Notes: generated by a model not told the origin, from the letters alone. DNA of 64,000 bases from Candidatus Saccharimonadales bacterium (GCA_036276755.1 DASUOG010000005.1:13777-77776); one strand, 5' to 3'; numbered from the stretch's first letter, positions 2,477 through 38,722 are shown. Program-made: numbers and translations.

Positions 2477-5400
2477 CTATACTCATCCCAGGATTTGACG
2501 GCGATATGTTGCAGTTTTTTCTGGCCAAGGCATCTTAGGAGCAGCCTGGCCGTCTCGGCATTGGTCATCAGCGGGATATGATGGTCTATCGTCAACCGGC
2601 GTATCTCATAAGCATCCTGTGCCCTTTCATCAGCATGGTATGGAACACATACCACAAGATCCAACTTGCGTTTAGCGATATATTCGGCCAGCGAATGTGT
2701 TTTATGTTCTTTGATTTTGCTCAGTTGCTTGGATGGTATGCCGTGGTCGCGCAGGAATTTGTGCGTACCGGGGGTGGCGAAAAGTTTATAGCCTTGCTGA
2801 TGCAGTTCGGACAGCTCGTCGATGAATTTGAATTTCTGCTCATCCGGCAGACTGATACAGATATTTTTGCCGGTGATTTCCTGGTCAGTAGCCAGCCAGG
2901 ATTTATAAAATGCTTCGGTGAGGTTATTGCCGAAGCAGGCTACTTCACCGGTGGAAGCCATCTCCACGGTCGCTACGGGATCGGCCCCCTTAAGCCTATT
3001 GTATGAAAATTGCGGACTTTTTACCGCTACGTAATCTAAATCAAGCGTGTTATAGGTTGCTGATTCATCCAGTTCGTCTAAGATGGCCTCTGTTGCCAGC
3101 TGGATAAAATTATGTTTGGTAACTTTGGAAACGAACGGGAAACTGCGAGAGGCCCGCACGTTGCACTCGATGACCTTAATCTGGTTCTTCTTGGCTAGAA
3201 ATTGGATATTAAAGGGTCCGGTGATGTTCAACGCCTTGATGATCTTGGCCGTTATGCGGTTGGTCCTACGGATGGTTTCCAGATATAGATACTGAGCCGG
3301 CAGGGCCACCGTCGCATCACCGGAATGAACTCCGGCGTTTTCGATATGTTCGCTGATCGCATAGACCACTAGCTTGCCGTCCTTGGCGACCCCGTCGATC
3401 TCAATCTCTTTGGCGTGGGTGATGAAATCGGATATCACCACCGGATGTTCAGGCGATAAATCGGCGGCTTTTTGTAGGTAATGTTTCATTTCCTTATCCG
3501 AGTAGACGATGCTCATCGCTCCGCCCGAGAGTACATAAGACGGCCGGATAAGTACCGGATACTCTACCCTCTGGGCAAACTGTTTGGCTTTTTGCAGAGT
3601 CGTCACTTCCTGCCACTCGGGCTGGTCGATGCCGAGCTCTTGCAGCATGCTTGAGAACAACTGCCGGTTTTCGGCGTTGTTGATATCTTTCGGATCCGTG
3701 CCTAATACCTTGAAGCCGCCCCCAGACAGCCTCGGCGCCAGATTGTTGGCTATCTGGCCGCCTACGGAAACCACTATCGGCCGGTTTTTTTCAAATTCGG
3801 CGATGTCGGCTACCCGTTCATACGTTAGTTCGTCAAAATAAAGCCGGTCCGATATGTCGAAGTCCGTTGATACCGTTTCCGGATTTGAATTGATGATTAT
3901 CGTGCCATAAGCGTGTTTCTTGAGTGTTCTTACGGTATTTACGGCACACCAGTCGAATTCCACAGAGGAGCCGATGGAATAAGGCCCGGAACCGAGTGTT
4001 ATGATGCTGTTTTCAAGCGGTTCTACATCATCAAATGTGCCGTTATAGGTGAGGTAAAGATAATTCGTCTCGGCTGAAAATTCACCGGCCAGAGTGTCGA
4101 TGAGTTTGACCGAAGGGCGTATACCGTAACGTTTCCTTAATGCCCTGACCTTATTCTCCTCAGAACCGACAAGCTGTCCTATCGTTTTATCAGAAAAACC
4201 TTGCCTCTTAGCCTTAGTGAGCAGTTCCTTACCGATCAGGCTTGCCTGTTTAAGCTCGGTTTCGGATTTATAAACTTGATAAACCTGACTTAAGAACCAG
4301 TTGTCAATGTTGCTTAAACGATTAACGTCAGCGACGGTCTTCCCTTGCTTAAAAGCATGGTAGATAGCGAATATCCTGCGGTAAGTAGGGTTTTTTATCT
4401 CGTCCGTGTAATTCCGCGCGAACTCATGGGGCGTCATACTCAGTCCGTCGCAGCCGGTGTTCTGCATGCGGATGGCTTTTTGCAAGGCTTCCGGGAATGA
4501 GCGTGCCAGAGCCATCACCTCGCCGACGCTTTTCATTTCCGAACCGATCCGGAAGTCGGAATTCTTCAGCTTGGTCAAATCCCACCGGGGCATCTTGACC
4601 GCTATATAATCAAGCGCCGGCTCGAAGAATGCCGAAGTCTGACCGGTTACCAGGTTTCTGAGTTCATGAAGTTTCCTGCCTAATATAAGTTTGGTAGCGA
4701 CATACGCCAGAGGATAGCCGGTAGCCTTGGAAGCTAAGGCGCTGGAGCGGCTAAGCCGGGCATTCACTTCTATCACCCGGTATTCTCCCGTTTTTGAATC
4801 CAGCGCGTATTGGATGTTGCATTCACCGACTATCTTAAGATGTCTGATGGTCTTGATCGCTATTTCCCGCAGCATATGATACTCATGGTTGGTCAGGGTC
4901 TGGGATGGCGCTACTACAATGCTTTCACCGGTATGTACGCCCATCGGGTCGAGGTTCTCCATGTTACAGACCGTGACGCTGTTGCCGCCACTGTCTCGCA
5001 CGACTTCGTACTCTATTTCTTTCCAACCCTCCAGATATTCTTCAATCAATACCTGGTTGACCTTATGGAATGCTTCATTGCATCTTTGTTTGAGTTCCTT
5101 CTCGTTGTTGACCTTGCCCGAACCCAAGCCCCCTAGGCTGAAACCGGAGCGCATCATCACCGGATAACCTATGGCCCTGGCTGCCTTGACGGCTTCCCGA
5201 GTCGAGTACGTAGCCTTGCTGAGAGGTGTTTTGACACCGATCTTATCAAGCTCTTTTTTAAACAGGTCGCGGTCCTCGGTGATTTGTATAGACTTTATGG
5301 AAGTACCTAAGGGTCTGACCTTGTATCGGCGCAGAACGCCCCTTTCATGGAGCTGCAGGCCAAGGTTCAAAGCCGTCTGCCCGCCGAAGCTGAGAAGTAT

Positions 5401-5637
5401 ACCGTCCGGCTTTTCTTTTTTGATTATCGCTTCGGCATATTCAGGACTGAGCGGCAGGAAGTACACTTTGTCGGCCATCTCGGAGTCTGTCTGCACCGTC
5501 GCGATGTTCGGGTTGATCAGGACGGTCTTTATGCCCTCTTCTTTGAGGGCCTTTATAGCCTGTGACCCAGAGTAGTCGAACTCGCCGGCCTGGCCGATCT
5601 TCAATCCGCCACTGCCTAAAATTAATACCTTTTTCAT
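2473..5637 (-). CDS. carB: carbamoyl-phosphate synthase large subunit
   Basis: 1054 aa. N-terminus MKKVLILGSGGLKIGQAGEFDYSG; duplicated ATP-grasp halves typical of CarB. Confidence 0.95.
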   Translation of the reverse strand: MKKVLILGSGGLKIGQAGEFDYSGSQAIKALKEEGIKTVLINPNIATVQTDSEMADKVYFLPLSPEYAEAIIKKEKPDGILLSFGGQTALNLGLQLHERGVLRRYKVRPLGTSIKSIQITEDRDLFKKELDKIGVKTPLSKATYSTREAVKAARAIGYPVMMRSGFSLGGLGSGKVNNEKELKQRCNEAFHKVNQVLIEEYLEGWKEIEYEVVRDSGGNSVTVCNMENLDPMGVHTGESIVVAPSQTLTNHEYHMLREIAIKTIRHLKIVGECNIQYALDSKTGEYRVIEVNARLSRSSALASKATGYPLAYVATKLILGRKLHELRNLVTGQTSAFFEPALDYIAVKMPRWDLTKLKNSDFRIGSEMKSVGEVMALARSFPEALQKAIRMQNTGCDGLSMTPHEFARNYTDEIKNPTYRRIFAIYHAFKQGKTVADVNRLSNIDNWFLSQVYQVYKSETELKQASLIGKELLTKAKRQGFSDKTIGQLVGSEENKVRALRKRYGIRPSVKLIDTLAGEFSAETNYLYLTYNGTFDDVEPLENSIITLGSGPYSIGSSVEFDWCAVNTVRTLKKHAYGTIIINSNPETVSTDFDISDRLYFDELTYERVADIAEFEKNRPIVVSVGGQIANNLAPRLSGGGFKVLGTDPKDINNAENRQLFSSMLQELGIDQPEWQEVTTLQKAKQFAQRVEYPVLIRPSYVLSGGAMSIVYSDKEMKHYLQKAADLSPEHPVVISDFITHAKEIEIDGVAKDGKLVVYAISEHIENAGVHSGDATVALPAQYLYLETIRRTNRITAKIIKALNITGPFNIQFLAKKNQIKVIECNVRASRSFPFVSKVTKHNFIQLATEAILDELDESATYNTLDLDYVAVKSPQFSYNRLKGADPVATVEMASTGEVACFGNNLTEAFYKSWLATDQEITGKNICISLPDEQKFKFIDELSELHQQGYKLFATPGTHKFLRDHGIPSKQLSKIKEHKTHSLAEYIAKRKLDLVVCVPYHADERAQDAYEIRRLTIDHHIPLMTNAETARLLLRCLGQKKLQHIAVKSWDEYS

Positions 5638-5758
5638 TTTGCGGCTACCCTATTATAATTTTCGGGTTCTTCCCCTTTGCAATCCTCCCACGAACTTCCA
5701 CGGTAGTCATTCATTGGTCCTTTCCGAAGAGCTGGCCGAAAATGTAAAAGCTTTCTGG

Positions 5759-6895
5759 TCATAGCATCTCCACAAATTTATCGAACAACCATGCCGTATC
5801 GGTCGGTCCCGGTGCCGCCTCCGGATGGAATTGGACGGAGAAAAATGGTTTGGATTTATGCATTATGCCCTCGACCGAACCGTCGTTTAAGTTACTGAAA
5901 TACACCCGCCATTCCTTGGGCAGAGAGCGTTCATCTACCGCGTAGCCGTGATTCTGACTGGTTACGTAGCATTTCCCGCTTTCGTTATCGATGCAAGGCT
6001 GGTTATGGCCGCGGTGGCCGAATTTCAATTTATAGGTCCAAGCGCCGGCCGCCAGCGACATAAGCTGGCTGCCCAAGCAAATACCCATGACCGGCTTATT
6101 GTTTTTGAAAAGTTTTTTTATGTTCTTGATGGATTGTTTATAATCGGCCGGATCGCCCGGTCCGTTCGACAAGAACACACCGTCATAATCATCGGTAGAG
6201 AAATCATAATCATAAGGGACGCGCAAGACGTTCAGCTTTCTCGAAGTCAGCGACCTAACTATATTCTCTTTGGCTCCGCAATCCAGTAACATTATGGTTT
6301 TGCCAGCGCCGGGGATCTTATACAGTTTTGGCCGGCCGATTGACACTAAGGGCTTTTTCGGTTTGAAATCCCTGATCGGCTTTTTCGAAGATGTGATTAC
6401 TCCGTTGACCACACCCCTACTGCGCAGATGCCCGGTCAGGGCCCGGGTGTCCACATCAAAGATTACCGGCACCCTCTGGTCTTTGAGCCATTCCAGGAAC
6501 GATCCCTGGGATCGCGGATGGCTCCAGTCTTCAACCAGTTCTGCCAGGACGACTCCGCGAGCATGTATCTTTTCCGACTCCCAGGCTTCTTCATGTACGC
6601 CGTAGTTGCCGATCAAAGGATAGGTGAAAGTAAGTATTTGCTCGCAGTATGAAGGATCCGTCAACGATTCAACGTAACCGGTCATACCGGTGTTGAATAC
6701 TACTTCGCCCGGTTTTGAATCGGTTTGCCATACAGGTACGCGGCCGTGGAACCTGGATCCGTCTTCCAGCATTAGCTGGGCGGGCTTCGATTTAAAAAAA
6801 TCGCCCCCGGGGCGACTTATTATTTTACCGCTAGCTTTTTTGATTGTTTGGCTCACACTCCGATATACACTATCAAGCAAACCCTTCCTGCGCAA
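5759..6895 (-). CDS. carA: carbamoyl-phosphate synthase small subunit (glutamine amidotransferase)
   Basis: 378 aa. Class I glutamine amidotransferase motif GICLGSQ (catalytic Cys) and FHPEA (catalytic His/Glu) in the C-terminal half. Adjacent to carB. Confidence 0.9.
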   Translation of the reverse strand: MRRKGLLDSVYRSVSQTIKKASGKIISRPGGDFFKSKPAQLMLEDGSRFHGRVPVWQTDSKPGEVVFNTGMTGYVESLTDPSYCEQILTFTYPLIGNYGVHEEAWESEKIHARGVVLAELVEDWSHPRSQGSFLEWLKDQRVPVIFDVDTRALTGHLRSRGVVNGVITSSKKPIRDFKPKKPLVSIGRPKLYKIPGAGKTIMLLDCGAKENIVRSLTSRKLNVLRVPYDYDFSTDDYDGVFLSNGPGDPADYKQSIKNIKKLFKNNKPVMGICLGSQLMSLAAGAWTYKLKFGHRGHNQPCIDNESGKCYVTSQNHGYAVDERSLPKEWRVYFSNLNDGSVEGIMHKSKPFFSVQFHPEAAPGPTDTAWLFDKFVEML

Positions 6896-7504: not shown

Positions 7505-7900
7505 TCAGTCCATGAGCCTTGACAGCAACGTCAAGATAATCGTGACGACAACGCTTATTCTCAAAGAACCGTTGATCAGACGTTTGGCACACGCCCGGTC
7601 AAGCCGACGCTTATCGCGGCTTATCACATCCTGGGTCTGCCCAACCTCGCCGGACATGTTATATTTACCGGCCTTTGCATAGCCGGTAGCGAATTTATGC
7701 CTGGCTTCATTTAACCCATGTATCGATATGAATACCGGTACCAGCATACTTAAATAAAGCAGGATAGGCACGTTGAAGAAAACCAGCATTATATAAAGCG
7801 CTGTCCCTACGGCCGCTGATCCGTAACCTACTACCTTTCGCCGATAATTTATCTCTTCCTTACCGATATTAACTGAACCGGCTTTATACTGAGATGCCAT
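7505..7900 (-). CDS. hypothetical small membrane protein
   Basis: 131 aa with two or three predicted transmembrane helices. Confidence 0.45.
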   Translation of the reverse strand: MASQYKAGSVNIGKEEINYRRKVVGYGSAAVGTALYIMLVFFNVPILLYLSMLVPVFISIHGLNEARHKFATGYAKAGKYNMSGEVGQTQDVISRDKRRLDRACAKRLINGSLRISVVVTIILTLLSRLMD

Positions 7901-7915
7901 GCCCCCGGACCGCTT

Positions 7916-8485
7916 TTATTTTTTATCTTGACTGCCTTTTAAGGCGGCTTCGACCACATCTCTTGGCAATGATGCAGCTGATAACAAGGCATTGCGAACG
8001 GTGTCCGCGGTGTCTCCACCTACCGAACTGGCCGCCGAAACCACACCACCGACAGCCGCTTTTGCGGCTTCTGAGGTATCCGCGCCGACTTCGCCGGCTG
8101 CCTTGATGGCTCCCTGTACCGCCGACACGGCTGCCGCTCCTACATCCCCGCCTGTTTCGGCAGTGGCGCTTATCGTACCTTCGGCTGCCCCTCTTATACC
8201 TTCAATCACATCCCCGCCGACTTGGCTGACACCATTTACGACGCTGCTCATAGTATTAAAAGCCGTATCTGACAATGAAACACCGACCTTGCCCGCGCCC
8301 TTAATGGCTCCGTCGGCGACCGATGCGATAGCCTCCACAGTGCTGCCACCGACATCCCCGGAAGATTGTATGACATTGATTACCTGGTCCTTTACGGTTG
8401 TCGTAACGGCATCGAGCACGTTGTCCACACCTTCTACCGCGGCAACGACCGCATCAGTAGTTTCGTTTATTATTTTTGCCAACAT
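7916..8485 (-). CDS. Ala/Gly/Val-rich tandem-repeat protein of unknown function
   Basis: 189 aa with no signal peptide. At least four degenerate ~22-aa repeats of the form GGD-V-x-A-x-x-GAIKAAG-x-VG. GC-rich coding region whose antisense frames are also open. Confidence 0.55.
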   Translation of the reverse strand: MLAKIINETTDAVVAAVEGVDNVLDAVTTTVKDQVINVIQSSGDVGGSTVEAIASVADGAIKGAGKVGVSLSDTAFNTMSSVVNGVSQVGGDVIEGIRGAAEGTISATAETGGDVGAAAVSAVQGAIKAAGEVGADTSEAAKAAVGGVVSAASSVGGDTADTVRNALLSAASLPRDVVEAALKGSQDKK

Positions 8486-8767: not shown

Positions 8768-9670
8768 ATGAAGATAACGGTGGTTGGCGCGGGGTTTGTC
8801 GGAGAGGCCACAGGTAAAGGGCTGTCCAAACATAAGAATGAAATCGTATTCATCGATGTGGATGAAGAAATCATCAAGTCACATCGTAAGAGCGGTTTCG
8901 CGGCTTATACCCCGGAAAATTACAATAAAATTGAAAGCGACATAACGATGTTTTGCGTGCCTACTCCTACGAATGGGGGGGGTATACAGCTTGATTACCT
9001 TAAGCACGCAGTTACTGATTTTGCTAAACGCTTGGCCCGGCACGATAAATATCATGTGGGAGTTATCCGTTCAACCGTTCCTCCCGGTACTACCCGCGAC
9101 ATCGTCCTGCCTCTTATAGAAAAGTATTCGAAGAAAAAAGCCGGCAAGGATTTCGGCTTGGTCATGCAGCCGGAATACCTAAGGGAAGCGACTGCTACCG
9201 AAGATTTTGAAAGACCCTGGTTTATTCTGATCGGAGAGCTGGATAAAAAAAGCGGTGATGTGATCGAAAGGATTTATAAGCCGTTTGACGCCCCGATCGA
9301 AAGAAGCAGTTTAGAAGAAGCTGAGATGCAGAAATATATCCATAACGTATTCAATGCAGTTAAAATAGCTTTCTTCAATGAGATGCGCATCGCGATCAAT
9401 AAGAAAGGCTGGGATCAAGAAAAGATTTTTCTGGCGACGGCGGAAAGTTGTGAAGGTATTTGGAATCCCCTTTACGGGCTCAGGGATTTCGGACCTTTTG
9501 ACGGTTCCTGCCTGCCGAAGGATTGCCGGGCTCTTTTGGAATGGGCCGAGGCCAACGGGTTTGATTTCGGTATCGTAAAATCCGTCATAAAACAAAACCT
9601 ATACCACGAAAAAATCATGGGGCTCAATAAAAAGGTCAGGGTTAATTATTTAGCTAACATTCATGTTTAG
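8768..9670 (+). CDS. nucleotide-sugar 6-dehydrogenase (UDP-glucose/GDP-mannose dehydrogenase family), short form
   Basis: N-terminal Rossmann motif ITVVGAGFVGE. Catalytic-cysteine motif FDGSCLPKD (family consensus GGxCxPKD). Only 300 aa, so the C-terminal nucleotide-sugar-binding domain appears absent. RBS AGGAG lies upstream. Confidence 0.75.
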   Translation: MKITVVGAGFVGEATGKGLSKHKNEIVFIDVDEEIIKSHRKSGFAAYTPENYNKIESDITMFCVPTPTNGGGIQLDYLKHAVTDFAKRLARHDKYHVGVIRSTVPPGTTRDIVLPLIEKYSKKKAGKDFGLVMQPEYLREATATEDFERPWFILIGELDKKSGDVIERIYKPFDAPIERSSLEEAEMQKYIHNVFNAVKIAFFNEMRIAINKKGWDQEKIFLATAESCEGIWNPLYGLRDFGPFDGSCLPKDCRALLEWAEANGFDFGIVKSVIKQNLYHEKIMGLNKKVRVNYLANIHV

Positions 9671-9676
9671 ACGGTC

Positions 9677-11272
9677 ATGTTAAAGACTCTTTTGATTTAT
9701 TTGCCGCTTTCAATCATCGGCCTGTGGCGCTGGACTTTCTGGCTTATACGAGTGGCCGGAGCGCGCATGTACCGGCCGCGTTACACCAGATGGCCTCATG
9801 GTAAGGCGAAATTGAGCGTGAGCGTCGTGACGCCGGTCTATAACGAGGACGAAAAGTTGTTTAAGATGGCGGTGGATTCATGGATAAACAACGGGGTCAA
9901 TGAAATAATTGCCGTCATCGATAAAGCGAACAAAAAGCTGATTACAGATTTCCATCGTCGTTACGGGAAGGTACCGCAAGTAAAGACAAAGCTTATCGTA
10001 ACCCCGAAAAAGGGCAAGCGCGCGGCTTTATGCGACGGAATTATGCATGCCAAGGGCGATATAATCGTTCTAGCAGACTCGGACACTATATGGGATAAAG
10101 ACGTGGTTAGGAACACACTGCCCCATTTTCTAGATGAAGGCATAGGCGGTGCAACAGTAACCCAGAGGATATCCAACCCGCATACGCTGAGCAATGTCCT
10201 GTTCGATATCCTGCTATGGACCCGCTATAAAGAAGAGGTGCCTTTCATGCTTGGGCTTGGCAGGGTCTTTAACACATTGTCCGGTCGGACAGCTTTTTAT
10301 AGGCGGGAAGCCCTGCTGAATGACGAATACGACAACCTCCACGACCTTAGACATGAGAAGTTTTTCAGAACAAGAGGAGTATCCGGTGACGACAAGCGGT
10401 TGACGCATCTGATTTTAGAACAAGGCTGGCACATATCCTTCGTTAACAATGCCACGGTATATACTGCCGGCCTGAACAATATGAAATCTTTTTTGAAACA
10501 GCGCTTGCGGTGGGTACGTAACTCATGGCGGGCCGATTTAAGGGCGCTCAAACGCGGCTGGGTCATGCAACACCCGGTCTTAGCCATCCATATGATAGAC
10601 AGGTTTATCCAGCCTTTCTTCATGCTCTTAGGGCCGGTGGCGTTTGTTACTGCCATAATCATTCAACAGTGGCCGGTGGCCATTATCCTCGGCCTGTGGT
10701 GGCTCATCAGCCGTCTTATCCGACTGTTCGGCTATTTCAGACTGTATCCGAGAAGGCTTGTCTATCTGCCGGCGTATATCATATACAGCTATATAAATGC
10801 CCTTACCAAGATCTACGCCCTTGCAACCCTGCTAGAACAAGGCTGGGTAACGCGCTGGCACAAAAGCCGTATGAAAAAGCATATACTTAGGAAGGTAACT
10901 ACGCCGATGGTCGGAATGGCGGCACTGGTGCTTTTGCTAACCGGCCTGCTCAACTTCGTAAAACAAGTTAACGTCGAATCAGGTGCCAGTCTTGATATTC
11001 CGCCAGCTGTCAATGCGGCCGAATTCAGTTTCGATGAACAGGAACTGGTTTTTATAGGCATTCCTACGCAACCTGAGCTTCCGAACGGCGCGGTACTACC
11101 GACGGAAGTGAAGACCTATGTCATCAGGCCCGGAGATACCATCAATAGTTTATCGGCGAAATTCGGTATGAGCATCCCGGACATCAAACGTTTGAATGGA
11201 ATCAGCGATCCCGATAAAATTTCTGCCGGGCAGACTATTCTTTATTATAAAAACGCAGGTGTTTCAGAATGA
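9677..11272 (+). CDS. processive family-2 glycosyltransferase (HAS/NodC/Alg8-like synthase) with C-terminal LysM domain
   Basis: N-terminal TM helix then VVTPVYNED. LADSDTIWDKD (DxD motif). QRLRW processivity motif. C-terminal TM bundle. C-terminal LysM sequence YVIRPGDTINSLSAKFGMSIPDIKRLNGI. Confidence 0.8.
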   Translation: MLKTLLIYLPLSIIGLWRWTFWLIRVAGARMYRPRYTRWPHGKAKLSVSVVTPVYNEDEKLFKMAVDSWINNGVNEIIAVIDKANKKLITDFHRRYGKVPQVKTKLIVTPKKGKRAALCDGIMHAKGDIIVLADSDTIWDKDVVRNTLPHFLDEGIGGATVTQRISNPHTLSNVLFDILLWTRYKEEVPFMLGLGRVFNTLSGRTAFYRREALLNDEYDNLHDLRHEKFFRTRGVSGDDKRLTHLILEQGWHISFVNNATVYTAGLNNMKSFLKQRLRWVRNSWRADLRALKRGWVMQHPVLAIHMIDRFIQPFFMLLGPVAFVTAIIIQQWPVAIILGLWWLISRLIRLFGYFRLYPRRLVYLPAYIIYSYINALTKIYALATLLEQGWVTRWHKSRMKKHILRKVTTPMVGMAALVLLLTGLLNFVKQVNVESGASLDIPPAVNAAEFSFDEQELVFIGIPTQPELPNGAVLPTEVKTYVIRPGDTINSLSAKFGMSIPDIKRLNGISDPDKISAGQTILYYKNAGVSE

Positions 11273-30678: not shown

Positions 30679-31158
30679 TTAGTTCAACTCTACTGTAGCA
30701 CCGGCCTCTTCTAGAGCCTTCTTTGCCGCTTCGGCGTCTTCTTTAGGCACCTTTTCCTTGATGACCTTAGGGGCTCCGTCGACCAGTGCTTTGGCTTCGC
30801 CAAGTCCCAGACCGGTTATGTCCTTGACGGCCTTGATGACGGCGACCTTTTGACCGCCTACGTCCTTCAGATTGATGTCGTATTCGTTTTTGGCTTCTTC
30901 GGCCGGAGCCTCTGCGCCTTCACCACCGGCTACCGGAGCTGCAACTGCCGCTACGGGAGCAGCCGCGCTTACACCCCAGTATTCTTCCAGAAACTTTACG
31001 AATTTACTGATTTCAAGCGCACTCATTTTGTCGAGTTGCTTGGTTATGTCGGCAAATTCCTTGGGAACCTCTACCTTTTTGGATTCTTTTGTTGAGTCTT
31101 CGGATTTGCTTTCTTCTTTCTTTTCTTCCGGTTTAGTATCTTTCGTTTCTGCTGTCAT
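30679..31158 (-). CDS. rplL: 50S ribosomal protein L7/L12 with extended acidic/Lys-rich N-terminus
   Basis: C-terminal domain [38 protein letters not shown]...[13 protein letters not shown]. About 40 extra N-terminal residues. Confidence 0.95.
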
Positions 31159-31172
31159 AGTTATCTCCTTTA

Positions 31173-31703
31173 TTAACTTATAGTTTCAGCGCGCGCATTC
31201 AACACCTGGAGCACGCCCTTGATGTTGCCGCTCAGTACGGTTACAAACCCTCTCTGCGGCCCGCTGAGCACACTGAGCAACTGCGCACGTAACTGTTCCT
31301 TGTTAGGCAAGGCGGCCAATTGTTTGACGTCCTCGGCTTCCAGGAATTGTCCGTCCATAGTAAGCGCTCCGACAAATTCCAAGGTTTTGTTTGCATTGGC
31401 AAATTTGGCCAAAGCTTGCGCAGGTGCCACTTCATCATCACTGTTGAAGGCATAAACAAGCTGGGAAGTCAGCTTAGCGGTGTCTATATCCTTGTACCTG
31501 GATGAAGATTGTAAGGCCTTGATGACCAAACGGTTCTTTATGACCTTGACGCTGGTACCGTTCGCTTTAGCTTGTTTGCGCAAGTTCTGCATTTGCTTAA
31601 CGCTGGTGCCTTGGTAATCAGCAATTACCGTCAGCTTCGAAGACTCCAGTAATTCGCTTACCTGACTTACTATTTCTTCTTTCTTAGCTTTCGTTAAAGC
31701 CAT
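31173..31703 (-). CDS. rplJ: 50S ribosomal protein L10
   Basis: [19 protein letters not shown]...[18 protein letters not shown]. Directly upstream of rplL. Confidence 0.95.
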
Positions 31704-31899
31704 TTTGATATTCCTTGTTTAGTTTACCTTGGCAGGCTTCGACCTTAGCCGCCAGAAAGTTACCATTAAAAAATCTTTGGCGTGGAACCAAAGACTTATA
31801 ACAAAGCTTTATTTGCCTCGGCGACATTTTCAAGCGATTAAATCGACGTCGCTGTCTTTGGGTAACTATCGACTATAATAACAGATTGAGCCTGTTAAT
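31704..31899 (-). promoter_or_regulatory. rplJ leader region (probable L10-L12 autoregulatory leader / promoter)
   Basis: 196-nt untranslated gap upstream of rplJ with predicted stem-loops (e.g. ccaaagatttttt/aaaaaatctttgg). Position is equivalent to the L10 leader of other bacteria. Confidence 0.35.
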
Positions 31900-34191
31900 T
31901 CAACTTTTATCAAGTTGTGCGAGTTTCTTCTTAGTGTAACGTTCGGCGGCCAGGCGTGTCAGCTCCGGATCATCGCTCATATTGACAAATTTCATGCCTT
32001 CAGCGATCAGGGGATGCTTTTCCGCCACCATATCAAACATTGTCTTGGCAATTTTTCTATAAGCCGGGTGTCCCGCTGAACCGGTTCTTAGCTCTAAAAA
32101 GTGATAAGCCTCCCGGGCGTTGAAAGTCATTTTCCAGCGCATCCGATGGCCCAAAAGTGTCGCATATTGAGCTTCCTGTTCGTAACCGTTTTTCTGCATC
32201 AGACTGTATAATCGCAGGCTTAGATCGAAGCACTTTTCGAATTCGTCACTCAATCCGGCATCTTGGACCAGTTTAGGAACTTCATAGCCGTAACGTGGCG
32301 TGAGCATCTGCCAAGTCAGATCATCTACCATGCGATGTCTCTGCAGATCGCGGAAAATGCCGTAATCGCACAAGATGTCCCATGAATAATGTATTTTTTC
32401 AAACGCCCGGCCCGGCTTGTGACGACGGTTGAATCTTTCGCCGATATAGCTTTGGACGACTTTTTTCTTCTTATTTACCGGCCATTTATCGACTTCTTTC
32501 CTCAGTTCGGTCAATGAAAGGGAACTATGTTCATATAATATATCGGCAGCTATATCCAATTCGTTATGCGGCCAAACACTGACCAGTCTTACGGGTTCGC
32601 TATCTCCACTGATCCTCGATGGCAATAATTCATCGGCTAGAGCCTTGGTATTTTCTCTGGCAAATGCTCTGTAGCCCATTGCCAGGATGCCGCGTTCGTT
32701 AATGTCGACTCTTTCCAAAAACGCCGGTATGGTCTTGCGCGCTTCAACCAGTAGTTTCCTGCCTACCTCGTGCGCTTCAGCCAGATTGTCGCTTAGCAAA
32801 TGCATGATTAGGCTTTCTAAGGCCTGTCCCGATGCGAATATACCGACGGTTGATTTGGTAGCTACCGGCAGGACCGCCCTGGCGGCATCACAAGCCTGGG
32901 CCCTGGTCGCGCCTTTCCAGGCAACGTCGCGCTCACTCTCCGGTACGCCGGAGGTGCTTCTAACGTAATCCGTAAGTTTGGCTACCATGTATGAATAAAT
33001 ACCAAAAATCTTGTCCAGTGCCTCGTTATAAGCCTTTTCAACGTCTTTTTTAAGGTAAGGTAGCCGATGATAACGGTAATTTCCGTGCTCATCTTTTTTA
33101 TCAAAATAGATATAACGCGTTGATTGTTCAAGGTAGGAGGCCAGCCTGCCCCACTCCAGCTTTTTTGTCAGCAGGTTGCTGGCATTCTCTACTACAACGT
33201 GTTGGCCGACCAGCTGCTGAACCGAATCATCGCCATATGCGGTTATGACCTTTTTAAGTAAGCGTTCGTCCTTGGCTTCCGGACTACTGAATTCGTCCAA
33301 GATAGTTACTCTCATATCATCGCCGCGCCGGCTTAACCGGGCCATGGCAGCAGCTATCGTCTGCGAAGGAAGTCTAGTGGTGAAGGCATACACGTCATCT
33401 TGGGTATTGGTCAGAAAGGATTTCAGATATTCGTGCCCTTCGGGTGTGATCCGGGGCGGGGACTCGGTTTTGTCCAAATAGGGGTTACCCTCGTTTTTAC
33501 CTATCTTTTTTTTTAGTTTGTTGCCGTCCGGCAAGAAAACCAGCATGGTTTCCCACAACTGGTCATTGATGATCTTGGTATTTAAAATTTTGCCCGAGCG
33601 CGTGCAGTCTATCTGCTTAAAGTCCTTGGGAAACAACTGGCATAAGTTATCATAAACTTCTACCGATTTTCTAAGATGCTCCAGGCTGCTTTCGTGAATA
33701 TCTTTTGAATTACCCCTTTTGTCGACATTTCTTATCGCTATCTCAGGCGGCACGCGCAGAACAAAAGATATATCAGGCCGCGGTATTTTAAACATCTCGT
33801 ATTCTATCTGGTCCAACCATATAAAGAACCCGCGCCTTTGCTCGGCGTTGTCGAACAGAACGCCCTGGTGAGCCATATTCGACCCACTAAACCTGTCCGC
33901 GACCACTACTTTGCCTTCGGTAAGGGCCTTTTTGATACGCGCCGCGGAATGAAACCGGTCTAGAGCAAAAAACATCGAGGCAGTATACGGTCCGACTGTT
34001 GCGGGGGACCCTAAGTTACCGGCCAGATATTCCTTGATGAAATAGCTGGAAGGCTTGTTGTATTGCGGGAACTGCAAGGCTTCTACTTTGTAGCCGTTAT
34101 TTTGGAGCCTTTCAACAATAAGTTTGAACTGGGTGGATTTGCCTGACCCGTTGGTACCTTCTAAAACGATGAATGCCCCTTGGCTTCGCAT
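31900..34191 (-). CDS. tmk-thyX: fusion protein: thymidylate kinase (Tmk) domain + two tandem ThyX-like (flavin-dependent thymidylate synthase) domains
   Basis: N-terminal 210 aa: P-loop FIVLEGTNGSGKSTQ and LID motif DRFSGSNMAHQG (Tmk family). Residues ~300–520: ThyX block WGRLASYLEQSTRY (compare RHRxASYxxQSxRY) and ARAVLPVATKSTV...NLAEAHEVGRKL. Residues ~560–763: RHR motif LQRHRM...PRY and ATLLGHRMRWKMTFNAREAYHFLELR, i.e. a second ThyX core. Confidence 0.75.
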   Translation of the reverse strand: MRSQGAFIVLEGTNGSGKSTQFKLIVERLQNNGYKVEALQFPQYNKPSSYFIKEYLAGNLGSPATVGPYTASMFFALDRFHSAARIKKALTEGKVVVADRFSGSNMAHQGVLFDNAEQRRGFFIWLDQIEYEMFKIPRPDISFVLRVPPEIAIRNVDKRGNSKDIHESSLEHLRKSVEVYDNLCQLFPKDFKQIDCTRSGKILNTKIINDQLWETMLVFLPDGNKLKKKIGKNEGNPYLDKTESPPRITPEGHEYLKSFLTNTQDDVYAFTTRLPSQTIAAAMARLSRRGDDMRVTILDEFSSPEAKDERLLKKVITAYGDDSVQQLVGQHVVVENASNLLTKKLEWGRLASYLEQSTRYIYFDKKDEHGNYRYHRLPYLKKDVEKAYNEALDKIFGIYSYMVAKLTDYVRSTSGVPESERDVAWKGATRAQACDAARAVLPVATKSTVGIFASGQALESLIMHLLSDNLAEAHEVGRKLLVEARKTIPAFLERVDINERGILAMGYRAFARENTKALADELLPSRISGDSEPVRLVSVWPHNELDIAADILYEHSSLSLTELRKEVDKWPVNKKKKVVQSYIGERFNRRHKPGRAFEKIHYSWDILCDYGIFRDLQRHRMVDDLTWQMLTPRYGYEVPKLVQDAGLSDEFEKCFDLSLRLYSLMQKNGYEQEAQYATLLGHRMRWKMTFNAREAYHFLELRTGSAGHPAYRKIAKTMFDMVAEKHPLIAEGMKFVNMSDDPELTRLAAERYTKKKLAQLDKS

Positions 34192-34250
34192 ATATTCACC
34201 CCAGTCTTATATTACAGCCCACCGGTTAATGGAATAATTATAACTTACAT

Positions 34251-34751
34251 TTAAGCAAATTGCCGTCCGACGATATTTTTCAGGTGTTTTTTGTTGTATA
34301 GTTTATGGCTGTTTTTTTCCAGATAAACTTTTTTGATACCCGCTGCTAAAATAGCATTCCAGCAGGGTTCGCAAGCCCACCAATGCCCCCATAGATACAG
34401 TTCCCCGTCGCTCAGATCCTTTTTTGGATGATTGTGTAGGGCATCCACGATAGCCCGGGGTTCGCTGTGGTTTTTCGGATGACAGCCTTCGCAAAGTTCG
34501 TATCGCTGACCGGTAGGTATACCTTTTTTTACCCGCTCGCAGCCGAATTTATCGTGATAATCACTGCCGTTGGCGCCTCTGCCGATTATCTTCCCCTCAA
34601 GCACTATCACGGAGGCGGTAGGCATGGTCCGATCCAGCGAATTGCTCCTAGCAAATTCCCTGGCCGCACTCATGAACTTATTATCCCCATCGACGTAGTA
34701 AATGGTTTCGTCCTTCGGGATGAACGGATATTTTATTTCAGATTTTGCCAT
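34251..34751 (-). CDS. dCMP deaminase (cytidine/deoxycytidylate deaminase zinc-binding family)
   Basis: Zinc-binding and catalytic motif HSEPRA (H-x-E) and CEPCWNAI (PCxxC). 166 aa. Confidence 0.8.
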   Translation of the reverse strand: MAKSEIKYPFIPKDETIYYVDGDNKFMSAAREFARSNSLDRTMPTASVIVLEGKIIGRGANGSDYHDKFGCERVKKGIPTGQRYELCEGCHPKNHSEPRAIVDALHNHPKKDLSDGELYLWGHWWACEPCWNAILAAGIKKVYLEKNSHKLYNKKHLKNIVGRQFA

Positions 34752-34794
34752 TAACTCTAGTAATTATAAGGATTCTTATCTATAATCACAAGAA

Positions 34795-35631
34795 ATGGCG
34801 AGATTTGATTTTATCTACAGGTCTGTACTGGAAGACCTGATGAATAAGGGGGTGAAGGAAGTAAACAAGCGAACTGGGCATGAAACTAAGGCGCTTCCCG
34901 GAATCAGTTTTTCTATAGACTTGGAAAAAGACGGTTTTCCGCTGCTTGCCTTGAGAAAAATACCCGTAAAATTGTTCATTGCCGAGCAAGTCTGGTTCAT
35001 ATCAGGCAGTAGAAAACCGGAGATATTTTTACGAGACTATACGAAGATTTGGGATGATTTCACTAACCCGGGCGATGTAGTAACCGTAGCATACGGCTAT
35101 CGCTGGCGCAGGCATTTCGGACGCGACCAGCTGGGTAGCCTTGTTAAACTACTGGAAGAGGACAAGTCTTCCAGGCACGGGGTCATAGTAACCTGGGATC
35201 CGGCCAGTGACGGCCTGGGCGGCGTCAGCAAAAGCAACGTACCCTGTCCATTTACGTTCACGGTCAATGTAATAGGCGGTCGGTTGAATCTTATGAACGT
35301 GGTGCGCTCGAACGATATGATCCTAGGTTTTCCGCATGATGTGGCCGGTTTTGCTCTTTTGCAATGCATTTTGGCCCAAAAACTTGGAGTAAAGCCGGGA
35401 ATTTATACGCATACTATAGCGAACGCTCATATTTACGACACCCACTATCACGCCGCCGAAGAACTTATAAAACGTCCGGTTGACTCTGAACCGATAAAGT
35501 TAGAATTGCCCGAAAATAGCTTTGAGAGATCTGAACAAAAAGACCACGGGCTGGTAGATGAAATCTATGCCAGTTTGACTGCAAATTATAAGCCCGGTAA
35601 TAAATTAAAAGACTTGAAAATAATCTTATGA
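34795..35631 (+). CDS. ThyA-family paralog (thymidylate synthase / dCMP hydroxymethylase fold) with Asp at the pyrimidine-specificity position; predicted dCMP (or CMP) C5-methylase/hydroxymethylase
   Basis: Aligns along its length with ThyA. Conserved blocks: KIWDDF (folate-binding Trp), YGYRWRRHFG (Arg pair), catalytic Cys in VPCPFTF, SND...GFPHDV (Asp in place of ThyA Asn177), and AHIY. Confidence 0.8.
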   Translation: MARFDFIYRSVLEDLMNKGVKEVNKRTGHETKALPGISFSIDLEKDGFPLLALRKIPVKLFIAEQVWFISGSRKPEIFLRDYTKIWDDFTNPGDVVTVAYGYRWRRHFGRDQLGSLVKLLEEDKSSRHGVIVTWDPASDGLGGVSKSNVPCPFTFTVNVIGGRLNLMNVVRSNDMILGFPHDVAGFALLQCILAQKLGVKPGIYTHTIANAHIYDTHYHAAEELIKRPVDSEPIKLELPENSFERSEQKDHGLVDEIYASLTANYKPGNKLKDLKIIL

Positions 35632-35653
35632 GGAACATATAGTAGGTAACCAT

Positions 35654-36298
35654 ATGTCTGTTCTAACACGCGAAGATATCCTGAAGTACGTCAAAGAGGG
35701 CGGTCTCGGTTTTAAACCCGGACTCGATTCGTTCCAATTGCAAGCACACTCGGTAGACCTGAGGCTCGGTTTTACGTTTTTAGTACCGAAATCATGGTAT
35801 GTCAGCAAAGCGGGCCGCGAACAGATCCACATGGACTTTTATGCCGCTAACAAAAAAGAACACTTCGACATAGTCGAGCTGGAGCAAGGCCAATTCTTCG
35901 ACTTGCTTCCGGATGAGCACATATTGGTCTCGTCCTTGGAATCTGTCAAATTGCCGGCTGATCTTATGGGGGTAATGTATCCGCGGTCATCCACCAACAG
36001 GAAAGGTATTTCAGTTGATCAGACAGGTATAATCGACAGCGGTTATGAAGGCCAGCTGGTGATCCCGATACGCAATAATACCCAATCGCAAACCGTAAGG
36101 TTATATCCCGGTGAGCGTTTTTGCCAGATCGTTTTCCAACGTTTGAGCGGGGAGGTCAAAGCCCGAAAAAGCCGCTACCACCGAAAGGACATAATCGAAG
36201 GCGTAGACGTGGACAGTCTGGAAAATGAACGCGAAAAAGAAATCAAATTAATAACAAAAGGCGACATCAAAGAGCTTAAGAAGAGCTACCCGGTCTGA
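35654..36298 (+). CDS. dCTP deaminase/dUTPase-superfamily protein lacking the deaminase catalytic Glu (probable dUTPase/dCTPase)
   Basis: Strong similarity to Dcd (HSVDLRLG, VKLPADLMGVMYPRSSTNRKGI, GIIDSGYEGQLVIPIRN). The E. coli Dcd catalytic E138 position aligns to Pro. Confidence 0.7.
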   Translation: MSVLTREDILKYVKEGGLGFKPGLDSFQLQAHSVDLRLGFTFLVPKSWYVSKAGREQIHMDFYAANKKEHFDIVELEQGQFFDLLPDEHILVSSLESVKLPADLMGVMYPRSSTNRKGISVDQTGIIDSGYEGQLVIPIRNNTQSQTVRLYPGERFCQIVFQRLSGEVKARKSRYHRKDIIEGVDVDSLENEREKEIKLITKGDIKELKKSYPV

Positions 36299-36305
36299 AC
36301 CGGCA

Positions 36306-37271
36306 CTACAGCTTGGACGGATCGATAGCTATAGACGGACCCATGGTAGTTGCAGCATAAATTGAACGTATAAAAGCGCCTTTTACCGATGAAGGCTTGT
36401 TTTGCTTAACCGATCCGACGAGTTCGTCCGCGTTTTGCTTGAGCTTCCCGCCACCGAAACTGACCTTACCGACACCGATATGGATAATGCCATTGCCGTC
36501 TACCCGGTACTCTACTTTGCCGGCTTTTGATTGCTCGACGGCTTTTGCCACGTCCGCAGTCACCGTACCGCTCTTCGGATTAGGCATAAGTCCTTTGGGT
36601 CCTAAGATACGTGCATACTTGGCCAATTTGACCATAAGGTTCGGCATAGCTATCAAAACATCGAAGTCGGTTAATCCCTTGTCCAGCATCGCCAGAACTT
36701 CATCTTCGCCGGCGATATCGGCACCTTTAGCCTTGGCTTTTTTGGCATTGGTTTCATCGGCGAATACCGCCACCTTGACGGTTTTGCCGCTTCCGGCGGG
36801 CAATACCACGCTGTCACGTATGTTCTGATCAGCTTGCTTCGGATCGACATTCAGCCTGATGTGCAGTTCTACCGTAGCATCAAAATTCGCAGTAGACGTT
36901 TTGCATGCCAGCTCCAGAGCGTCCGCTAGGTTGTACTCCTTGTCTTTTTCAATCAGTTCGGCTGATTTGCGGTATTTCTTGCCTTTTCTTTCAAGCTTCG
37001 AACGCGGTGGTTTCTGCTGAGGTTTTTTCTCTTTGGCTGAAGGCTCAGATGACTGTGCGGTTTTACGGTCTTCTTTAGCGGTTTTTTCTTCGGTTTCACG
37101 GACCGCCGTGGCGCTTCGCTTGCCGGCTTTTGCCGTCTTTTGCTCTTCTTTTGGCTCTTCAGCCTCAGACTGGGCTTTTTCAACTGCAATTTTCTTTTTG
37201 GCTTCTTGTTTCTCTTCGTCTGCTGCCTGCTGTTTGCTGCCTGCAATTGTCTTTTTGGTCTCTTCTGCCAT
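36306..37271 (-). CDS. rplA: 50S ribosomal protein L1 with ~95-aa Lys/Glu/Ala-rich N-terminal extension
   Basis: Canonical L1 core (VELHIRLNVDPKQADQ...PKGLMPNPKSGTVT). Start placed at the internal ATG (MAEETKK), which is preceded by AAGGAG, rather than the GTG at 37319. Confidence 0.9.
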   Translation of the reverse strand: MAEETKKTIAGSKQQAADEEKQEAKKKIAVEKAQSEAEEPKEEQKTAKAGKRSATAVRETEEKTAKEDRKTAQSSEPSAKEKKPQQKPPRSKLERKGKKYRKSAELIEKDKEYNLADALELACKTSTANFDATVELHIRLNVDPKQADQNIRDSVVLPAGSGKTVKVAVFADETNAKKAKAKGADIAGEDEVLAMLDKGLTDFDVLIAMPNLMVKLAKYARILGPKGLMPNPKSGTVTADVAKAVEQSKAGKVEYRVDGNGIIHIGVGKVSFGGGKLKQNADELVGSVKQNKPSSVKGAFIRSIYAATTMGPSIAIDPSKL

Positions 37272-37329
37272 GATCACTCCTTTCGTGGTGCAGACGTCCG
37301 CCAGCTGGCGGACTCCCACAAAAAATTAA

Positions 37330-37755
37330 TTATTCTACTTCTATGCCCATACTGCGAGCCGTACCGGCGACCATTTTCTTTACGGCGTCAATATCGTCGG
37401 TATTCATATCCTTAGCCTTATTCTCGGCGATGGCGGTTAAGTCGGCATCTGATAATTTTTTATCGATTTTTTCAGTGTTCGGACGCCCGGAACCTTTTTG
37501 GATACCCAGTTTAGCCCTTATTTGTTCGTCAACCGGTTCACTAACGACTCTGAATTCCATACTTCTATCGTCATAAATCGTTATGTGGGCGGTTAAAATG
37601 CCTTTCATCTCTTTGGTCTGTTCATTGAATGGGTTGATAAAGTCCATCATGTTGACTCCGTACTGTCCCAAGGTACTGCCTACCGGCGGCGCGGCACTGG
37701 CTTTGCCCGCCGGTACACGCATCTTTAAATTTGCTTTTATTTCTTTCTCAGCCAT
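37330..37755 (-). CDS. rplK: 50S ribosomal protein L11
   Basis: MAEKEIKANLKMRVPAGKASAAPPVGSTLGQYGVNMMDF. Confidence 0.95.
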   Translation of the reverse strand: MAEKEIKANLKMRVPAGKASAAPPVGSTLGQYGVNMMDFINPFNEQTKEMKGILTAHITIYDDRSMEFRVVSEPVDEQIRAKLGIQKGSGRPNTEKIDKKLSDADLTAIAENKAKDMNTDDIDAVKKMVAGTARSMGIEVE

Positions 37756-37764
37756 GACTATCTC

Positions 37765-38307
37765 CTAAACCTTCTTTACCTGTAGCGTGTCCAGTTCTAC
37801 CGGTGTTTCACGGCCGAACATATTAACCAGCACTTTAAGCTTGCCTTTAGTGGCATCTATCTCGTTGATAGACCCGTCGAAGCCCTTGAACGGACCGTCG
37901 ATTATATTGACGACCTCGCCTTCCTTGAGGTCTATCTTATGCTTTGGCTGCTCAAGGCCCATACGCTTGCGTATCTTATCCAGTTCATCCTTGCTTATGG
38001 GCGTGGGGTCGATGCCCGTCCCTACAAAACCGGTAACGTTCGGTGTGTTGCGGACTATATACCAGGCATCCTCGGTAAGTTTCATATGCACCAACACATA
38101 GCCTTGGAAAATGCGTTTTTCGACAATCTTGCGCTTACCGTTTTTTATCTCTATCATCTTTTCCTTAGGTACCAATACTTCAAAAATCTTATCGGCCATA
38201 TCCAGACTTTCGGCACGCTGGCGGATGCTTTCGGCGACTTTTTCTTCATAACCGCTGTAGGTATGGATGGCATACCAGTTTTTGGTTTCGTCGTATCTTT
38301 TTGCCAT
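37765..38307 (-). CDS. nusG: transcription termination/antitermination factor NusG
   Basis: WYAIHTYSGYEEKV NGN domain and C-terminal KOW (GDRVRI...). Conserved position after secE. Confidence 0.9.
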   Translation of the reverse strand: MAKRYDETKNWYAIHTYSGYEEKVAESIRQRAESLDMADKIFEVLVPKEKMIEIKNGKRKIVEKRIFQGYVLVHMKLTEDAWYIVRNTPNVTGFVGTGIDPTPISKDELDKIRKRMGLEQPKHKIDLKEGEVVNIIDGPFKGFDGSINEIDATKGKLKVLVNMFGRETPVELDTLQVKKV

Positions 38308-38329
38308 TGCTATACTCCTTACGCTTTGG

Positions 38330-38722
38330 TTATTTAATTATTATCTGCTTGAACAGTTTATCGAGCACGAAGTCCAATCCGGCGATAAAAACGGCAAAAA
38401 TAGCCGAAAAAACGAATACTGCGAACGTCAATCGTATAGTTTCCCTGCGTCCCGGCCATGTGGTCAGACGAAGCTCCTGCCAGGCGCCTTTCAGATACCG
38501 GGGGACGGCGAACAACAATCTGTCTAAAAACCGGCCTAAACGGTTGTCCGGCAGCCTGACGAATCGATTTCTTTTCTTGCCGCCACCCGAACGTATTTTC
38601 TTGATCGGTGCGAATCGTCGTTCTTTCGCGGTCTTTTTCTCACCACGCTTTTTAGAAGCGGCCAATTCACGCATAGAAGGTGCCCTAGCTGGTTGCTTTG
38701 ATGGTTTCTTCTTTCTTGCCAT
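38330..38722 (-). CDS. secE: preprotein translocase subunit SecE with long basic N-terminal extension
   Basis: C-terminal WQELRLTTWPGRRET followed by a single TM helix. About 70 aa of Arg/Lys-rich N-terminus. Confidence 0.8.
   Translation of the reverse strand: MARKKKPSKQPARAPSMRELAASKKRGEKKTAKERRFAPIKKIRSGGGKKRNRFVRLPDNRLGRFLDRLLFAVPRYLKGAWQELRLTTWPGRRETIRLTFAVFVFSAIFAVFIAGLDFVLDKLFKQIIIK

Follow-up and report, generated by a model that had tools for sequence, protein, structure and literature searches.

In the genome of a Candidatus Saccharimonadales bacterium, four genes of pyrimidine deoxynucleotide metabolism lie between the ribosomal protein genes rplA and rplJ, and their products may together make thymidylate by way of 5-methyl-dCMP. 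They were studied in a stretch of DNA of 64,000 nucleotides (GCA_036276755.1 DASUOG010000005.1:13777-77776), hereafter the window, which belongs to the core part of the chromosome in a metagenome-assembled genome (MAG) of Candidatus Saccharimonadales; positions are counted from its first letter. The minus strand reads secE-nusG-rplK-rplA, then the four-gene interval, then rplJ-rplL. Nearest to rplJ is a gene for a 763-amino-acid (aa) fusion of Tmk with two ThyX parts (31900-34191, minus strand; Thymidylate_kin 2.5e-26, Thy1 1.5e-37 in two stretches), and beside it one for a divergent zinc deaminase of the cytidine deaminase (CDA) fold (34251-34751, minus strand, 166 aa; Pfam dCMP_cyt_deam_1 4e-10). 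Beyond a divergent intergenic region of 43 nt (34752-34794) come a gene for a ThyA-family protein (34795-35631, plus strand, 278 aa; Pfam Thymidylat_synt, PF00303, 1.3e-49) and one for a protein resembling dCTP deaminase (DCD) (35654-36298, plus strand, 214 aa; PF22769 8.3e-33; TIGR02274 111.3 bits against a cut-off of 92.8). NCBI MAG proteins with 100% identity exist for the fusion, the deaminase and the ThyA-like protein.

These open reading frames (ORFs) and their Pfam and NCBIfam profile assignments agree with the first-pass annotation of the window, which had named four such genes between rplA and rplJ. Its count of 7 nt between the stops of the DCD-like gene and rplA is exact: the TGA of the former is at 36296-36298 and the stop of rplA (36306-37319, minus strand; Pfam Ribosomal_L1 4.7e-56) at 36306-36308, the two genes converging on a spacer at 36299-36305. 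The size of 4.6 kb that it gave to the island holds for the gap between rplA and rplJ, while the four genes themselves span 4.4 kb. An L10 leader RNA (31759-31879, minus strand; Rfam RF00557, model 1-138 full-length, E=2e-4), at 42.9 bits below the gathering score of 44, is still directly upstream of rplJ (31173-31703, minus strand; Pfam Ribosomal_L10 1.9e-21), which puts the four genes between the leader and rplA. An Rfam scan of 30.0-39.5 kb gave nothing beyond it.

The region between the deaminase and ThyA-like genes contains two TATAAT boxes, back-to-back, each 9-12 nt from a start codon. The boxes suggest putative near-leaderless divergent transcripts; in relatives the same spacer has a median length of 43 nt and TATAAT is often found near the ATG. 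Promoter-like sites (11 found) were not above shuffled controls, and terminator-like sites (14 found) were modestly above them, with none inside the 7-nt spacer.

Active site and relatives of the ThyA-family protein

The ThyA-family protein was aligned with E. coli ThyA, the thymidylate synthases (TS) of phage Xp12 and Mallos, and T4 dCMP hydroxymethylase (T4 sequence checked against PDB 1B49). Homologues at 57-82% identity were taken from 80 loci of the Patescibacteria, or candidate phyla radiation (CPR), found in a scan with one genome per species. Cys151, Pro152, Asn148 and Asp182 of the window protein (Asp182 codon 35338-35340) correspond to Cys146, His147, Leu143 and Asn177 of the E. coli enzyme, whose numbering is used from here on. 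Glu58, Tyr94, Cys146, Arg166, Ser167, Asp169 and His207 are kept in the window protein and in all 80 CPR homologues, Arg21 in 79, Arg126 in 79-80 and Tyr209 in 78 of them. The same homologues have Asp177 (80/80), Pro147 (79/80), Asn143 (80/80), Phe83 (80/80) and Val, Ile or Leu165 (80/80), so that the three residues that read uracil O4, Asn177, His147 and Gln165, are all replaced. The protein has the TS fold, the catalytic Cys and the phosphate-binding Arg of a dUMP-specific ThyA, and lacks its Asn177/His147/Gln165.

The five-position pattern is identical in the Xp12 and Mallos TS, which also share the indel-bearing motifs RHFGRDQL and WDPAxDGLG..KNVPCP. The best phage matches, at 36-41% identity, are from the Bradleyvirinae, including Xp12 and PaMx74, phages that carry modules of TS, deaminase and dihydrofolate reductase (DHFR); the closest characterised relative is the Xp12 dCMP methylase, with 36.5% identity and the shared motifs. 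HMMER was run exhaustively against 1.84 billion cluster representatives, and the nearest 150 were examined: 128 have Asp177 and 89 have Asp177, Pro147 and Asn143 together, nearly all of these with Phe83 as well, and proteins with the canonical Trp83/Leu143/His147/Asn177 first appear at about rank 90. The window protein thus carries the signature of the Xp12-type methylase and is placed among signature-bearing proteins. This bears out the cytosine-type active site that the first-pass annotation had read from the DNA; its term paralog does not apply, as the window has no canonical ThyA for the gene to be paralogous to.

Cytosine-modifying TS are told apart best by the residues at positions 177 and 147 (PMC8670742), and the replacement of Asn by Asp at position 177 turns TS from dUMP to dCMP methylation, in mutagenesis work referred to in the same paper. 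5-Methyl-dCMP is the product of the Xp12 TS and of five relatives from metagenomes, and the deaminases that neighbour these enzymes have been proposed to yield dTTP (bioRxiv 10.1101/2024.12.05.627091). For hydroxylation, T4 dCMP hydroxymethylase needs both Asp145 and a C terminus without the tail (PMC6400193). The position of Asp145 is Asn in 80/80 CPR homologues, the hydrophobic tail (..I-[V/A/I]-L) is kept, and the CPR proteins in this way lack the marks of a hydroxymethylase of the T4 gp42 type. The Asn, the tail and the linkage to DHFR point to a methylase rather than a hydroxymethylase, and the enzyme is predicted from its residues to be a reductive dCMP methylase that produces dihydrofolate.

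Asp177 TS occur in natural fusions: P0140 includes a dCMP-deaminase domain, and P0158 a pyrophosphatase domain of the MazG/PRA-PH kind. No domain was found in the N-terminal 190 aa of a further protein (P0123), in which the start was probably mis-called.

The paired deaminase and the DCD-like protein

The family of the deaminase is well conserved in CPR (59-79% identity) and has invariant zinc ligands, HSE at residue 95 and CEPC at residue 127, and an extra His/Cys cluster. Its HSE...CxxC motifs lie on a CDA fold (AlphaFold2 model; predicted local distance difference test score 87.6), as in the CDA superfamily. The best fold match is the dCMP deaminase of cyanophage S-TIM5 (E=9e-6), with TadA/tRNA and guanine deaminases nearly as good, and the best match among PDB sequences is weak (E=0.017). 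The predicted substrates, 5-methyl-dCMP and/or dCMP, are assigned mainly on context. The gene is paired with a TS gene as in Xp12-type phages, in line with the parallel drawn at first pass. An orthologous relationship with the phage deaminases selective for 5-methylcytosine (5mC) was considered and dropped, as there is no meaningful similarity to the Xp12 deaminase.

The DCD-like protein has the DCD fold, scores above the TIGR02274 cut-off and keeps Ser111, Arg115 and Asp128. The catalytic Glu138 of E. coli Dcd is Pro138 in the window protein, and Pro in 66/66 CPR homologues. Motifs III (GIIDSGYEGQ) and IV (GERFCQ) are dUTPase-like, and there is no motif V (RGxxGFGSTG). As the first-pass wording of a dCTPase/dUTPase-family enzyme had implied, the protein probably hydrolyses rather than deaminates, and it is predicted to be a dCTP (and/or dUTP, 5-methyl-dCTP) pyrophosphatase. 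A pyrophosphatase upstream of the methylase, not a second dUTPase, is suggested by several features of related loci. Canonical Dut with motif V coexists with the DCD-like gene in many clusters; where the DCD-like gene is absent (L071, L074-L077 and L079) a MazG-like gene comes after DHFR instead; Asp177 TS are fused to deaminase and MazG domains; and the P0140 locus of a distant organism of 33% GC (L086 8001-9973) has an adjacent 212-aa DCD-like gene, again with Pro. Neither a DCD-fold dCTPase nor a Glu-less DCD partner was found described in a literature search. A ribonucleotide reductase is encoded nearby in the P0140 locus.

Conservation of the locus across Patescibacteria

The 80 loci span the Saccharimonadales, Paceibacteria, Kaiser-, Doudna-, Nomura-, Taylor-, Colwell- and Vogelbacteria, and others. 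They were surveyed over 6-10 kb around each gene; the window proteins were run against them by tblastn and all their ORFs were clustered into recurrent families. The ThyA-like family is present in 76 of the 80 loci, followed by the DCD-like (68), DHFR (67), deaminase (61), Tmk (55), serine hydroxymethyltransferase (SHMT; 44), rplK/nusG (38), argS (26) and MazG-like pyrophosphatase (17) families. The deaminase gene is divergent and <=700 bp upstream of the ThyA-like gene in 72/76 assessable loci, the DCD-like gene is <=1.5 kb downstream of it in 58/64, and rplK is <=4 kb from it in 32 of the 43 loci with enough flank.

The full order, with rplJ, the Tmk–ThyX–ThyX gene and the deaminase gene on one strand, the ThyA-like, DHFR (in some) and DCD-like genes on the other, and then rplA, rplK and nusG on the first strand again, is found in Saccharimonadales relatives (L001, L002, L004, L005, L008, L010, L011 and L078) and in L096, and tight convergent junctions with rplA are seen in relatives too. 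The typical layout in Paceibacteria is argS–Dut–Tmk–SHMT–deaminase, then TS–DHFR–DCD-like, then rplK–nusG, where Dut is a canonical 140-aa dUTPase with motif V; an independently annotated contig has the same gene set, labelled by Pfam. We read the four genes of the window as the form taken in Saccharimonadales by an ancient thymidylate locus, which stands beside nusG–rplK(–rplA) throughout the Patescibacteria. Such a set had been called unexpected in a cellular chromosome, and in this superphylum it proves to be the norm.

In many relatives the ThyA-like and DCD-like genes are some 500 bp apart, and a DHFR gene fills the space. In the closest relatives this gene encodes 164-165 aa (L001 4424-4918 and L002 8834-9331); the cluster DHFR matches PF00186 with 67 bits, and L016 has a canonical FolA instead. 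The ThyA-like and DCD-like genes of the window are 22 nt apart with no DHFR gene between them, L003 is likewise without one, and no DHFR or SHMT homologue was found anywhere in the 64-kb window. The DHFR gene has been lost or moved in the lineage of this window.

Against four relatives, dN is 0.10-0.25 for the four genes, 0.16-0.41 for rplJ and 0.09-0.12 for rplK; dS is saturated in these comparisons, so only dN and a few ratios are usable, and dN/dS is <0.05 where computable, which indicates strong purifying selection.

Several variants of the layout were also observed. In many Paceibacteria-type loci (L007, L012, L015-L020, L027, L030, L031, L044, L046, L050 and others) rplK is directly followed by the thymidylate cluster, with no rplA within 8 kb. 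An otherwise typical cluster in L087 has a gene for a Y1 transposase of the IS200/IS605 type (7751-8440) between the DCD-like and DHFR genes. A second gene of the deaminase family is beside the cluster in L003 (~9500-9950), L065 and L073, and in L073 and L080, both binned as Gammaproteobacteria, the deaminase gene is downstream on the same strand and not divergent.

The Tmk–ThyX–ThyX fusion and replacement at the locus

The Tmk part of the fusion is a dTMP kinase with its P-loop at residue 12. By alignment to T. maritima ThyX, the two ThyX halves were found to be complementary: the N-terminal half has LASYLEQSTRY (~343-361), which supplies the Ser/Arg portion of the motif, and no RHR, and the C-terminal half has RHR at 618 and no Ser. 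These halves would be compatible with one composite site per pseudo-dimer. A search of PDB sequences with the ThyX part gave no match. The fusion family is large, with 3768 homologues at E<=1e-20, and a metagenome scan with the Tmk–ThyX fusion returned 3 loci only.

Six Saccharimonadia loci (L088 and L091-L095), picked solely for carrying the fusion at 59-63% identity, have the order secE–nusG–rplK–rplA–DCD–Tmk-ThyX-ThyX–…–rplJ–rplL, and no ThyA-like gene, deaminase or DHFR was found within 6-8 kb in any of them. The DCD in these loci has 237 aa and the catalytic Glu (LTLE[V/I]YN), DPGY and KYQ, as in genuine dCTP deaminases. In a seventh fusion locus (L096, 70% identity) both systems are present, with DHFR. 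The rplA–rplJ slot in Saccharimonadia holds either a Glu-type DCD with ThyX or a Pro-type DCD-like protein with an Asp177 TS and deaminase, the second set occurring with or without DHFR and with or without ThyX. The exchange is non-orthologous displacement of interchangeable pathways at a fixed 'thymidylate slot'. Displacement at one slot implies that the net job of the module is dCTP to dTMP, and the co-variation of Glu-type DCD with ThyX and of Pro-type DCD with the Asp177 enzyme fits a Pro-type protein that delivers dCMP, not dUMP. The two locus types interleave in a rough neighbour-joining tree, which was not used as support.

Nucleotide-salvage genes are found in the loci with ThyX only, namely a thymidine kinase gene in L091 (14742-15329) and a gene for a dNMP kinase of the DNMK family in L095 (4460-5215).

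Proposed pathway and alternatives

The linkage of the cluster to DHFR, SHMT and Tmk, and the presence in six loci of a genuine DCD with Tmk–ThyX in its place, indicate that its net function is dTMP synthesis. In the model that we favour, with a probability of roughly 0.5, dCTP is converted to dCMP, then to 5-methyl-dCMP and then to dTMP, alongside ThyX in this genome. The DCD-like protein, without the deaminase glutamate, would hydrolyse dCTP to dCMP. The ThyA-family enzyme, as a C5-methyltransferase of the Xp12 type, would convert dCMP and methylene-tetrahydrofolate to 5-methyl-dCMP and dihydrofolate, and the deaminase would turn 5-methyl-dCMP (or the triphosphate) into dTMP (or dTTP), after which Tmk would phosphorylate dTMP to dTDP. 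Folate would be recycled by DHFR and SHMT, which in most relatives are encoded in the cluster. A dUMP-dependent route would be present here too, through the ThyX fused to Tmk and fed by dCMP deamination or dUTP hydrolysis, so that this genome would represent an intermediate state with both routes and with the cluster DHFR gene lost. We infer the substrates, methylation before deamination, and canonical DNA from the residues, neighbours and family placement described above.

Several points weigh against the pathway through 5-methyl-dCMP. It is the Asp177 signature that places methylation before deamination; the displacement at the slot does not fix this order, and dCTP to dCMP to dUMP to dTMP would fit equally if the Asp177 enzyme accepts dUMP. 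The canonical dUTPase in many clusters and the ThyX of this genome fit classical dUMP logic. As a divergent protein of the CDA fold, the deaminase cannot be separated from tRNA and guanine deaminases by the fold search on its model. With neither DHFR nor SHMT in the window, no gene in it accounts for the recycling of the folate that the ThyA-like enzyme would use.

The alternative that survives best, although we regard it as doubtful, is an ordinary dUMP route, in which the DCD-like protein and/or a canonical dUTPase, with the deaminase, supply dUMP, the Asp177 enzyme methylates it and the cluster is a standard ThyA–DHFR–SHMT–Tmk cycle, as the annotations assume. All databases consulted name the protein thymidylate synthase; the linkage to DHFR, SHMT, Tmk and canonical dUTPase and the ThyX in this genome agree with such a cycle, and replacement of the module by DCD and ThyX at one site fits either order of steps. 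It has to reckon, however, with the loss of all the uracil O4 contacts at positions 177, 147 and 165 in 79 to 80 of 80 homologues and with the place of the protein inside a clade whose tested members make 5-methyl-dCMP. We know of no natural Asp177 enzyme that acts on dUMP. The switch of specificity on Asn-to-Asp mutagenesis (via PMC8670742) also argues against it, whereas the complementation of an E. coli folA deletion by a CPR folA (PMC11974145) speaks in its favour.

The enzyme set also matches that of Xp12-type phages (Asp177 TS, deaminase and DHFR), with a candidate dCTPase and a kinase in the cluster. The modules could on this ground serve cytosine replacement at the nucleotide level: 5-methyl-dCMP would be phosphorylated and incorporated, the DCD-like enzyme would deplete dCTP, the deaminase would supply dTTP, and genomic C would be largely or wholly 5mC, as in Xp12. 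We consider this unlikely. Six relatives swap the module for DCD and ThyX, which would be hard to expect if 5mC were fixed in the DNA; the cluster is housekeeping and conserved beside ribosomal genes; and the literature searched held no report of global 5mC in CPR, which is weak evidence. The DNA-modification logic of T4 and XP12 that had been read into the cluster at first pass is conceivable on the enzyme set, and is not favoured, given the thymidylate cycle of DHFR, SHMT and Tmk and the replacement in six loci. The broader proposal that Patescibacteria with the module incorporate 5-methyl-dCTP at the nucleotide level, with much or all genomic C as 5mC in a cellular counterpart of Xp12, appears improbable; if true, it would allow these epibionts to tell their own DNA from scavenged host DNA.

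It is very improbable that the ThyA-family enzyme hydroxymethylates dCMP as T4 gp42 does and that the cluster is a source of 5-hydroxymethyl pyrimidines: Asp177 and an RSND motif are common to the T4 enzyme, but the water-activating Asp145 of T4 is Asn here, the C-terminal tail absent from T4 is present, the DHFR linkage implies a dihydrofolate product and the T4 enzyme is not among the best PDB matches.

The first-pass annotation supposed a recent or unusual insertion from the broken operon and the 7-nt convergent junction. A recent, horizontally acquired island of phage origin in rplKAJL, to which the phage relatives of the TS might also point, can be given almost no credence, because relatives throughout Saccharimonadales share the arrangement and CPR classes share its core, the GC of the four genes (0.45-0.49) is that of the window, no repeats, tRNA genes, integrases or mobility genes (mobility read from ORFs) were found in their flanks, their dN is as low as that of rplJ with dS saturated, and relatives have the same tight junctions.

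Flanking genes

Genes of the window outside the locus were read as ORFs only. rplL lies with rplJ in an rplJ-rplL pair (31703→30679, minus strand), and its L7/L12 product (30679-31158, minus strand) has a charged N-terminal extension of ~40 aa. On the other side, rplK, nusG and secE occupy 37330-38722 (minus strand), with synteny across CPR by tblastn, and the L1 protein encoded by rplA has a Lys/Glu/Ala-rich N-terminal extension of ~135 aa ahead of the L1 domain (Pfam residues 140-328). At 2473-6895 (minus strand), ORFs of 1054 and 378 aa start, by eye only, like the large and small subunits of carbamoyl-phosphate synthase; the lineage is usually described as lacking de novo pyrimidine synthesis.

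Comparison with known systems

To our knowledge, all cells are taken to make thymidylate from dUMP, by ThyA or ThyX. An entire superphylum of bacteria may use an unusual route instead. Should its Asp177 enzymes methylate dCMP and a deaminase then yield dTMP, this very large radiation would have a third route to dTMP among cells, one that bypasses dUMP and for which only a few phages have been put forward until now; metabolic reconstructions and the 'thyA' annotations of thousands of genomes would change, and there would be an explanation for the odd deaminase that is always paired and for the DCD that has no Glu. New specificities, including deaminases of 5mC nucleotides and a DCD-fold dCTPase, would become available, and nucleotide-level 5mC in any cell would become a directly testable question.

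The logic of the components is already known from phages, through labelling studies of Xp12 and a 2024 preprint (bioRxiv 10.1101/2024.12.05.627091). A literature search found no cellular, superphylum-wide version, no Asp177 signature in CPR 'thyA' and no cellular 5-methyl-dCMP pathway; papers on CPR, including PMC11974145, treat the gene as an ordinary thyA.

The CPR cluster most resembles the module of phages Xp12 and PaMx74, with which it shares a TS with Asp177/Pro147/Asn143/Phe83, the TS motifs and 36-41% identity, a neighbouring deaminase of the CDA family, DHFR in the module and the proposed logic of dCMP to 5-methyl-dC to dT. It differs in being chromosomal, housekeeping and superphylum-wide beside ribosomal genes, in having a deaminase of another, divergent subfamily, and in the added DCD-derived pyrophosphatase, Tmk and SHMT; the window differs further in having no DHFR gene.

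With the E. coli ThyA–FolA–GlyA cycle it has in common the fold, the catalytic Cys, the phosphate-binding Arg, the folate-binding Asp169/Glu58/Tyr94, the C-terminal tail and the genomic coupling to DHFR and SHMT. Unlike the E. coli enzyme, the CPR protein has Asn177 replaced by Asp, His147 by Pro (79/80), Gln165 by Val/Ile/Leu, Leu143 by Asn and Trp83 by Phe, and it is obligatorily paired with a deaminase and with a DCD-like protein predicted to be non-deaminating. The cytosine-specifying Asp and a dNTP pyrophosphatase proposed to supply dCMP are shared with T4 gp42 and gp56, whereas the CPR enzyme has no equivalent of Asp145, has the C-terminal tail and is linked to DHFR, and the CPR pyrophosphatase is of the DCD/dUTPase fold and not MazG-like, although some CPR loci have MazG-like genes in its stead.

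The DCD-like protein shares with the Dcd and DCD-DUT proteins of E. coli, M. jannaschii and M. tuberculosis the fold, the N-terminal region, TIGR02274 and Ser111/Arg115/Asp128, and differs from them in the change of Glu138 to Pro in all homologues and in motifs III and IV, which resemble those of dUTPase. The fusion protein has two Thy1 domains per chain and keeps RHR, like tandem pseudo-dimeric ThyX, and is set apart from it by the fusion to Tmk and by halves that carry complementary subsets of the motifs.

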